Shown here: positions 23,470 to 61,438 of the stretch, piece after piece
How the letters are laid out: every line of letters begins with the position of its first letter
How positions within the stretch are numbered: the first letter of the stretch is position 1
NCBI GenBank assembly: GCA_951406725.2
Contig: OX597820.1
Span: forward strand, 17,670,001 to 17,734,000
Source of the DNA: Octopus vulgaris
Taxonomy: Eukaryota
DNA length: 64,000 bases
Direction of reading: 5' to 3'
Translations under genes and position numbers: made by a program
Notes under the pieces: model-generated
Seen by the model: only the letters and a program-made list of their open reading frames with translations
What the model was told of the DNA's origin: nothing
The model's database searches: none

Positions 23470-24069
23470 CTTATTTCTTTACTGCCCACAAGGGGGCTAC
23501 ACACAAAGGGGACAAACAAGGACAGACAAATGGATTAAGTCAAGTATATCGACCCCAGTGCGTAATTGCTACTTAATTTATCGACCCCGAAAGGATGAAA
23601 GGCAAAGTCGACCTCGGTGGAATTTGAACTCAGAACGTAGCGGCAGACGAAATACCTATTTCTTTACTACCCACAAGGGGCTAAACACAGAGAGGACAAA
23701 CAATGGCAGACAAACGGATTAAGCCGATTACATCGACCCCAGTGCGTAGCTGGTACTTAATTTATCGATCCCAACAGGATGAAAGGCAAAGTCGACCTCG
23801 GCGGAATTTGAACTCAGAACGTAATAGCAGACGAAATACCTATTTTTATTTCTTTACTACCCACAAGGGGCTAAACACAGAGAGGACAAACAAGGACAAA
23901 CAAACGGATGAAGTCGATTATATCGACCCAATGCGTAATTGCTACTTATTTAATCGACCTCGAAAGGATGAAAAACAAAGTCGAACTTGGCGGAATTTGA
24001 ACTCAGAACGTAGCGACAGACGAAAAAGCATTTCGCCTGGCGTGCTAACGTTTCTGCCAGCTCGCCGCC
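23470..24069 (-). mobile_element. SINE family C trimer
   Basis: Three ~185-bp units, only the 5'-most with the full head GGCGGCGAGCTGGCAGAAACGTTAGC; one target-site duplication CCTTTATTCTT around the whole array. Confidence 0.85.
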
Positions 24070-25372: not shown

Positions 25373-25787
25373 ATTTCTTTATTACCCACAAGGGGCTAAA
25401 CATAGAGGGTGCAAACAAGGACAGACAAAGGGATTCAGTCGATTACATCGATCCACAGTGCGTAACTGGTACTTAATTTATAGACCTCGAAAGGATGAAA
25501 GGCAAAGTCGACCTCGGCGGAATTTGAACTCAGAACGTTACGGCAGACGAAATACCAATTTCTTTACTACCCACAAGGGGCTAAACACAGAGGGGAGAAA
25601 CAAGGACAGACAAAGGGATTCAGTCGATTACATCGACCCCAGTGCGTAACTGGTACTTAATTTATCGACCCAGAAAGAATGAAAGGCAAAGTCGACCTCG
25701 GCGGAATTTGAACTCAGAACGTAACGGTAGACGAAATATGGCTACGCGTTTCGCCCGGCGTGCTAACGTTTCTGCCAGCTCGCCGCC
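25373..25787 (-). mobile_element. SINE family C dimer
   Basis: Two units; one target-site duplication TATATCACATTATA flanks the dimer. Confidence 0.85.
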
Positions 25788-53610: not shown

Positions 53611-53988
53611 ATAATAATAATAATAATAATACATACATACATACATACATACATACACACACACAAACACACACACATGCATACACACATACACATACAC
53701 ACACGCATTCACACATACATACATACATACATACATATGCCCTTCCCGTGGTGTAATCTCATAAGGCCGATTTTCCGGATTCTGTGGCGTACATATTATT
53801 CGGCTGGAAGGGACAACCGTCCGACACAGATTTACTTATTTTGCCAGCTGAGTGGACTGAAGTAATGTTAAACGAAGCGCTTTCCTCGAAAGCAGAATGC
53901 ATCGGCCGGACCAGATGTCGAAACTTCAATCTTACGATGTTGTGTGCGTCACTACAAACACATACTCACATGCATACATATGCACATT

Positions 53989-54040
<52 letters not shown>

Positions 54041-54142
54041 TCAGGGTGGATACTTGATAATTGTAAGCACCTGTATATACCATTTGGTGGTGTAGGTGGT
54101 AGAGTATATTAATCAAAATAAAAACATGATGCCAAGAATTCA

Positions 54143-54218
54143 GCGGTACATATGTTTCGGGCCTTTATTAGACGGATTTAACAATGCATAATGTGTGTCT
54201 ATGGCCTTCTTCAGCCGC
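54143..54218 (-). ncRNA. Type I hammerhead ribozyme motif (left arm)
   Basis: Mirror copy of 54476-54553. Confidence 0.6.
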
Positions 54219-54475
54219 GCACAATTACTACTTCAAGGACATGTATTACATCATAAATTCTACGTTGAGGATGCAAATCCTCACAGTCGCGTACGACAGA
54301 GTGGGGCACCAGCACAAAAACGAAGCGTCTTTCACTCATTCTACATTGAGTGAAAGGCGGGATGGACGCTTCGTTTTTGTGCTGGTGCCCCACTCTGTCG
54401 TACGCGACTGTGAGGATTTGCATCCCCAACGTAGAATTTATGATGTAATACATGTCTTTGAAGTAGTAATTGTGC

Positions 54476-54553
54476 GCGGCTGAAGAAGGCCATAGACACA
54501 CATTATGCATTGTTATAAATCCGTCTAATAAAGGCCCGAAACATATGTACCGC
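54476..54553 (+). ncRNA. Type I hammerhead ribozyme motif (right arm)
   Basis: GCGG-CTGAAGA-AGGCC...GGCCC-GAAA-CATATG-TA-CCGC: stem I GCGG/CCGC, palindromic stem III ACATATGT, GUA site at 54549; A-C mismatch at the base of stem II. Confidence 0.6.
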
Positions 54554-54586
54554 TGAATCCTTGGCATCATGTTTTTATTTTGATTA

Positions 54587-54659
<73 letters not shown>

Positions 54660-54669
54660 TTTAAAAAAA

Positions 54670-60822: not shown

Positions 60823-61438
60823 TGGTTTCAATTTTTTCCACAAGGGCAGCAGTTTTGGGGAAGGGTATGAGTCGATTACATCGACCCCCGGTGTTCAACA
60901 GGAACTTATTTTATCGAACCCGAAAGGATGAAAGGTAAAGTCGACCTCGGCAGAATTTGAACTCAGGACGTAACGGCAGACGAAATACCTATTTCTTTAT
61001 TACCCACAAGGGGCTAAACATAGAGTGGACAAACAAGGACAGACAAACGGATTAAGTCGATTATATCGATCCAAGTGCGTAACTGGTACTTAATTTATCG
61101 ATCCCGAAAGGATGAAAGGCAAAGTCGACCTCGGCAGAATTTGAACTCAGAACGTAACGGCAGACGAAATATCGCTAAGCATTTCACCCGGCGTGCTAAC
61201 GTTTCTTATTTCTTTATTACCCACAAGGAGCTAAACATAGAGGGGACAAACAAGGACAGACAAAGGGGTTAAGTCGATTACATCGACCCCAGTGCGTAAC
61301 TGGTACTTAATTTATTGACCCCGAAAGGATGAGGCAAAGTCGACCTCGGCGGAATTTGAACTCAGAACGTAGCGGCAGACGAAATACCGCTAAGCATTTC
61401 GCCCGGCGTGCTAACGACTCTGTCAGCTGGCCACCTTA
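60823..61438 (-). mobile_element. SINE family C trimer
   Basis: Three units showing both junction types; AACACAGCC(G/A)TTAATAAT flanks the whole array. Confidence 0.85.

Follow-up and report, generated by a model that had tools for sequence, protein, structure and literature searches.

How two near-identical arms, each carrying a hammerhead ribozyme motif that points outwards, came to lie back to back was the question raised by this locus of Octopus vulgaris. The window, meaning the whole stretch of 64,000 nucleotides analyzed (contig OX597820.1, positions 17,670,001 to 17,734,000), comes from a 2.8-Gb genome rich in microsatellites, and the best protein relatives are those of an octopod. This genome was searched for relatives, of which 40 were scored out of 1559 candidates, and 30 loci were compared to set the limits of the element. 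By comparison with other genomic copies, the insertion was found to run from 54037 to 54591 and is larger than the palindrome first outlined (Table 1). The two arms originally predicted at 54105 to 54329 (225 nt) and 54365 to 54591 (227 nt) were confirmed by pairwise alignment, in which they differ by 3 substitutions and a single 2-nt gap, and in the 30-locus comparison the left arm extended a further 68 nt, an extension common to about half of the copies. A (TA)n tract had been noted on the right; it is present there, but the insertion is flanked by a second one on the left. The 35 nt between the arms had been described as a spacer with its own hairpin. They proved to be element sequence: the left arm is interrupted by a 9-nt deletion between CGTC repeats and then resumes, until it overlaps the start of the right arm in the four bases CTCA, a microhomology joint. 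Since the spacer consists of element sequence, its hairpin is a mere continuation of the arms. The 9-nt deletion was considered as a haplotype marker and dropped, as its one other exact occurrence in the genome likewise lies at a joint; it is read as repair slippage. The description of the palindrome as young holds in a relative sense only, other pairs having 0 differences (L156, 0/193 columns). We are nearly certain that the locus is a doubly 5'-truncated insertion of a Penelope-like element (PLE), with both stumps back to back.

Table 1. Features of the inverted insertion and its target, in window coordinates
Feature	Position	Strand	Basis or remark
(TA)n target microsatellite, left	54009..54037		sequence
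68-nt tail of left arm	54037..54104	-	minus arm of window locus (L001) reaches reference 295
Left arm, 5'-truncated pLTR (3' end) of element fitting the Hydra clade	54105..54338	-	2-nt deletion near 54178; 9-nt deletion between 54329 and 54330
Left-arm type I hammerhead motif	54143..54218	-	predicted cut between 54147 and 54146
CTCA microhomology at arm joint	54335..54338		joint unique in genome
Right arm, 5'-truncated 3' end of same element, untailed	54335..54591	+	ends at reference 227
Putative initiator-like TCATTC, candidate transcription start	54336..54341	+	upstream edge of 5' breakpoint pile-up
Right-arm type I hammerhead	54476..54553	+	predicted cut after 54549
(TA)n target microsatellite, right	54587..54660		sequence

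Following the longer copies upstream, across about 2 kb of low-complexity 3' untranslated region (UTR), led to the parent element and its GIY-YIG domain. The arm was found downstream on the same strand in 19/20 endonuclease-anchored loci, the 20th reaching its contig end. At two loci (L077 and L078), stop-free frames of 835 and 842 amino acids contained the motifs FIQFD, YRDD, and VIY..YIG, that is, a reverse transcriptase (RT) followed by a C-terminal GIY-YIG endonuclease within one open reading frame (ORF), the arm being linked downstream. A profile search gave a retron RT match at E 3.8e-4, and a Pfam search of the 835-amino-acid frame gave no RT or GIY-YIG match, its lone weak match being spurious. 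A linked RT and GIY-YIG Penelope ORF had been named as a check in the original prediction and is present; the predicted Penelope-type origin and inverted pLTRs are supported. The insertion had also been called non-autonomous; the parent family is autonomous, however, and the central joint of the window palindrome occurred once genome-wide in a search allowing up to 1 mismatch. A MITE-like, non-autonomous palindromic family was rejected on that single occurrence and on the finding that all 20 abutting joints differ. The element measures ~4.7 kb, including ~2 kb of microsatellite-rich 3' UTR and an ORF of ~835 amino acids. The subfamily of the open-frame copies is 85 to 88% identical to the window arm, and a closer copy (L064, 94%) is frameshifted. 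One locus (L067) combines an inverted stump, a direct pLTR with a hammerhead, and a tail running into leader and ORF start. The window copy itself lacks an ORF and is most likely dead.

Section 11 of PMC8557442 defines the Hydra clade of PLEs by DKT, a CxCx5C linker, CxxC and CxH around E and N, and the lack of CCHH. In the octopus frame, DKT replaces DKG (within PADKTG), the linker CNCICASEC conforms to CxCx5C, CQLC..E..N..CIH flanks E and N, one Cys only lies inside the core, and there is no CCHH. By these motifs the family fits the Hydra clade, and by eye it is apparently an undescribed member, set apart from the printed protein and hammerhead of Hydra-1_Obim. With elements such as Hydra-1_Obim and Penelope-13_HM it shares the C-terminal GIY-YIG, DKT, CxCx5C, CxxC/CxH, the (TA)n target, and a pLTR hammerhead, but the clade has RWK, a length of <3 kb, and a tail of 30 to 40 nt, whereas the octopus family reads RWA in the column where homologs have RWK, is ~4.7 kb long, and has a 68-nt tail and a stem-loop II of ~50 nt (PMC8557442). 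Two Asn-rich inserts in the thumb-to-linker region (L077:3151-5655), absent from most homologs, recall the N-rich inserts that parts of PMC3846280 describe in Adineta Penelopes. Remnants of the Hydra clade are highly abundant in the genome: at L031:7861-8229 (minus strand) lies another Hydra-type endonuclease, similar to Hydra-1_Obim, which yielded 16001 candidates when used as a query. Just upstream of the GIY-YIG core, in its coding region, the parent element has an internal inverted repeat of ~60 nt (L031:3851-3918 and matching loci). A disrupted ORF fragment of a Neptune-type PLE lies upstream of the arm at L042:4280-5660; it terminates in a (TA)n of its own, 1.6 kb before the arm, and was rejected as unrelated.

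The hammerheads were identified as motifs. Each arm contains CUGAAGA, GAAA, and the palindromic ACAUAUGU, and the CUGANGA and GAAA core, the UH site, a closing helix I, helix II, and a palindromic helix III were all present, which bears out the prediction of an outward type I hammerhead on each strand. On the plus strand, stem I pairs 54476-79 with 54550-53, CUGAAGA (54480-86) is followed by an extra A (54487), stem II pairs GGCC (54488-91) with GGCCC (54533-37), and GAAA (54538-41) leads into the palindromic helix III (54541-48) and the predicted cut after A54549. The original caveat of an A-C mismatch at the base of stem II may largely dissolve, since the motif can be read either with an extra nucleotide, a G10.1-C11.1 pair, and a bulged C or with a known type of basal mismatch. 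The first register was computed at -7.5 kcal/mol and the mismatch register at -9.7, the model preferring the mismatch by 2.2. Parts of PMC4209133 describe PLE hammerheads as typically having an extra nucleotide between 9 and 10.1 plus G10.1-C11.1, and the supplement of PMC8557442, in part, shows mismatches at the stem base in several Hydra-family hammerheads. The octopus motif resembles the minimal type I PLE hammerheads described in those parts of Cervera and De la Pena (2014, PMC4209133) in its short helix I and palindromic helix III and, in the first register, in the extra nucleotide between 9 and 10.1. The extra nucleotide and bulged helix II were also found in other hammerheads of the genome (L039/L082 and L187). 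Other type I hammerhead families were observed at L039:8352, L082, L181:1130, L182:3008, and L187, some with a CAUAUG helix III and the same bulged helix II design; a cross-family alignment with MAFFT did not register and was uninformative.

The helices were near-invariant within the family: core and stems carried 8/722 minor alleles, compared with 157/2090 upstream and 35/582 downstream, in 19 copies that were found through the endonuclease and are related rather than independent. Rfam scans of the locus, another check named in the original prediction, gave no hammerhead model at E ≤ 5 or E ≤ 10. The minimum-energy fold of the monomer is not a hammerhead, and the preferred fold hides the core (z +1.09 and +0.60 versus shuffles). 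The Rfam miss and the modeled fold are in line with low or protein-assisted activity. One transcript would be unable to form a hammerhead dimer with itself, because the two ribozymes sit on opposite strands. In the window copy, the hammerheads are most likely passengers, formerly selected in the source elements.

To place the locus among its relatives, an exact hammerhead 38-mer was used, which had 420 matches in the genome. The first 100 in chromosome order (contigs C1 to C4) corresponded to 82 loci. Two-armed loci made up 32/82 of this sample, a proportion that is not a genome-wide rate because the 38-mer has to match exactly, two-armed loci get two chances of being sampled, and 3 to 6.5 kb was covered per locus (9.9 kb for one). 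All 32 were outward-pointing, with 0 inward. The 3' ends fell at two sharp reference sites, 295 (50 ends) and 227 (44 ends), hereafter tailed and untailed, and one of each was paired in 30/32 two-armed loci (binomial P of 1.2e-7 against 0.5). Of the two exceptions, L133 conforms on its outermost ends and L166 does not, having two untailed ends 1.7 kb apart. Among further two-ended loci, the window included, 15/16 obeyed the rule; L067 breaks it, both of its outer ends being untailed and one of them not lying at (TA)n. The lack of untailed/untailed pairs is not due to the loss of unstable palindromes, because their arms would be no longer. Single-armed loci comprised 22 tailed and 28 untailed ends, and a duplicated insertion reduces the former to 19 independent tailed ends. 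No remnant of a second end was called beside 49 single-armed loci (L142 has a short tail remnant by eye, below threshold), and most insertions are therefore not visibly two-ended. Four copies (L089, L118, L119, and L120) share a 5' joint and were considered as a mini-family, which was rejected as their flanks are also shared. They represent one truncated copy within a duplicated unit of C1 that spans at least 3 kb, with 95 to 99% identity between the duplicates; the left flank has at its end a GC-rich, hairpin-like stretch with CTAG, which resembles a Helitron 3' end and is itself followed by (TA)n.

The longer arm was the tailed one in 13 pairs and the untailed one in 13, with 4 tied at the reference limit or equal. 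Among the 26 decided pairs, the tailed arm was thus the shorter in 13, in the extreme reduced to the tail alone (L157, L163, and L152), and full ORFs may sit on the untailed arm (L068 and L077). Arms that consist of the tail alone and stop at the second start site occurred in 3/32 pairs, versus ~1 expected from the breakpoint rate, which is not significant. Mates shared subfamily alleles in 863/880 diagnostic columns of 43 pairs, with 17 discordant, compared with 36% discordance on shuffling. At abutting joints, 12/20 had an overlap of 0 to 2 nt and 8/20 had 2 to 45 nt between the arms, and 105/116 ends were followed by (TA)4 within 24 nt. With 32/82 loci two-armed, the palindrome is the routine footprint of the family and not a rare event. 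An artefact of assembly is scarcely credible: no public contig spans the joint among the pieces listed (with 2144 further pieces), and the matches listed from 4 public sequence runs against 54038-54364 gave family-wide cover with none across the joint, but substitutions, two deletions, and a tail set the arms apart, and the asymmetric design is seen again at 32 loci whose joints differ. The public runs listed were contigs throughout, with no RNA run among them.

Much of this architecture is already on record. Inverted 5'-truncated PLE copies with a tail at one end appear in parts of PMC8557442, PMC3846280, and PMC8969392, opposite-strand hammerhead pairs 100 to 700 bp apart are noted for Schistosoma in part of PMC4209133, and part of the supplement of PMC8557442 lists Penelope-13_HM as having one hammerhead per strand along with an inverted copy that is 5'-truncated. 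The insertion units described in parts of Arkhipova et al. (2013, PMC3846280) and Craig et al. (2021, PMC8557442) have a head-to-head inverted truncated copy, a one-sided tail, and an Inr-like pLTR motif, as here, and 5' truncation, a direct pLTR tandem, an adjacent inverted copy, and a tail at one end were all found in the octopus family. Published accounts already cover inverted truncated copies, one-sided tails, and pLTR hammerheads; the architecture is routine. In those parts, however, the units are described as optional or frequent, whereas the octopus family is near-strict in having one end of each kind, with either arm longer. The counts add the near-strict pairing, the free choice of longer arm, and the shared alleles. 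A non-LTR retrozyme was ruled out: such retrozymes are head-to-tail tandem arrays in the parts of bioRxiv 10.64898/2026.07.22.740005 used here, while this family bears an ORF and forms inverted pairs, with no short direct tandem among the first 100 of the 420 matches.

The 5' breaks of the arms clustered at reference -33 to -2 (25 breaks, 1.63 per 100 nt at risk), compared with 0.28 to 0.44 per 100 nt downstream and 0.11 just upstream (P of 1.4e-8, for an interval chosen after seeing the first 30 loci and with six arms that have a subfamily boundary at -49 dropped). Both window arms terminate in this zone. At its upstream edge lies TCATTC, which resembles the initiator (Inr) consensus, and GGACG at +27 is DPE-like but is one base short of the canonical spacing, and is not claimed as a DPE. 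The pile-up is likely to be caused by a transcription start, the alternative cause being a pause of the RT.

We think it probable that the locus arose by twin target priming, with two cDNAs from two start sites joined by microhomology. The enzyme would nick both strands of the (TA)n target, and each nick would prime one cDNA, one starting at the far end of the tail (295) and the other 68 nt upstream (227), on one RNA. Both cDNAs would be antisense and attached to opposite target strands, so that their 3' ends could only join head to head, and repair would join them through a few complementary bases, leaving outward arms. Under this mechanism, one RNA with two single-use start sites would explain the one-of-each rule and the shared alleles of mates. 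A more specific version, in which a dimeric enzyme assigns the tail-bounding start sites one per target strand on one RNA, many templates starting at the initiator ~140 nt upstream of the hammerhead, appears to us evenly balanced between right and wrong; if true, it would explain the inverted pLTRs, the outward orientation, and the one-sided tail in one step. We infer the two primings, the dimeric enzyme, the strand displacement, the single RNA template, and the joining by microhomology. The family identity, the (TA)n on both sides, the outward orientation, the one tailed and one untailed end, the shared alleles, and the short joints support twin priming, all of whose steps are read from genomic scars, and concordant mates would also be expected if subfamilies were active successively or arms were homogenized later. 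LINE-1 twin priming uses a single RNA for priming from both target strands, and microhomology joins the resulting cDNAs, which produces an inversion. LINE-1 inverts non-overlapping parts, whereas the octopus PLE cDNAs would copy the same 3' segment, yielding a palindrome and needing strand displacement or two templates.

Biochemical evidence comes from the Poseidon PAc protein of Anolis, which, according to parts of Frangieh et al. (2024, PMC11167929), cuts and extends both strands in vitro, begins reverse transcription at two sites on either side of the tail, has a predicted dimeric form, and works with uncleaved RNA. The proposed mechanism would resemble it in the two tail-bounding start sites, the cutting and extension of both strands, an AT-rich target, and a protein-assisted hammerhead. 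PAc belongs to another clade, and inverted units are not analyzed in those parts of the paper; the start site did not differ between strands, and the in vitro data therefore do not reproduce the coupling (PMC11167929). PMC8557442 treats the way in which PLEs build inverted repeats and tails as an open question; for the in vitro system of PMC11167929, the near-strict pairing with either arm longer gives a sharp prediction. Neither the rule nor twin priming of PLEs was found stated in the literature searched, although Arkhipova 2006, Evgen'ev and Arkhipova 2005, and supplements may state it. The window locus is itself an ordinary dead copy, and its value is that of a countable scar.

The same counts bear on two other routes to a palindrome. 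The published reading is a fold-back, with self-priming for head-to-head repeats in part of PMC3846280 and endonuclease-mediated resolution for the tail in part of PMC8557442; here a hairpin or palindromic DNA intermediate, possibly from an antisense template, would have its tail trimmed at one end by the endonuclease. This would explain the shared alleles of mates and the short microhomologies, and the untailed end is AT-rich and target-like. Fold-back of a target-primed tailed cDNA, however, predicts a longer tailed arm, which is not what the 26 decided pairs or the two full ORFs on untailed arms show, and the two tail-bounding start sites measured in vitro (parts of PMC11167929) also count against it. 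A fold-back copy of an untailed cDNA would be unable to gain a tail, and the one version left is extrachromosomal, with trimming at random. We regard fold-back as possible but doubtful. A second route, which we consider improbable, is that two RNAs paired through the palindromic helix III each templated one arm, the ribozyme motif being a dimerization signal. The 12-nt helix III segment self-pairs at -9.0 kcal/mol, helix III and the stems are near-invariant in the 19 related copies, and PLE hammerheads are proposed in part of PMC4209133 to act as dimers. On the other hand, no clearly mixed pair was seen among 43, none having more than 2 discordant substitutions at its diagnostic sites; two equivalent RNAs alone do not account for the fact that the ends never share a start site; and Naiads, which lack the hammerhead, make the same structures according to part of PMC8557442. 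Twin priming from two start sites remains the preferred reading.

It had further been proposed that RNA of the palindrome could silence the ribozyme and feed ADAR or Dicer. The RNA of the whole palindrome was computed to fold at about -425 kcal/mol. A read-through transcript would form a hairpin of about -423 kcal/mol, and in either direction the antisense arm would be made before the ribozyme. Such RNA would contain double-stranded RNA (dsRNA) trivially, and a role of this kind is a possibility. Retention of the palindrome as a regulatory dsRNA source for the host, with a self-silenced ribozyme, is nevertheless very unlikely: no host exon was recognized among window frames of at least 100 amino acids, the structure is one of many, and its arms are decaying. 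The A-to-I imprint looked for did not appear, as sense-strand A>G changes (24/7895) were not in excess of T>C changes (31/9277; P of 0.79) among the rare changes in 147 arms, with tail-only fragments left out. Long hairpins of this type are present ready-made in large numbers in the genome; for dsRNA and editing studies they matter only if transcribed.

Other repeats were observed in the window. A SINE-like dispersed family of 184-bp tandem units occurs in both orientations at 23470-24025, 25373-25738, 34506-34872, 42890-43189, 50284-50620, and 60886-61206. An inverted pair of 438-nt repeats, 90% alike and adjoining (AAT)n tracts, lies at 9605-10042 and 53193-53630. A frame at 52303-52848 resembles, by its motif, the restriction-like endonuclease of a non-LTR element.
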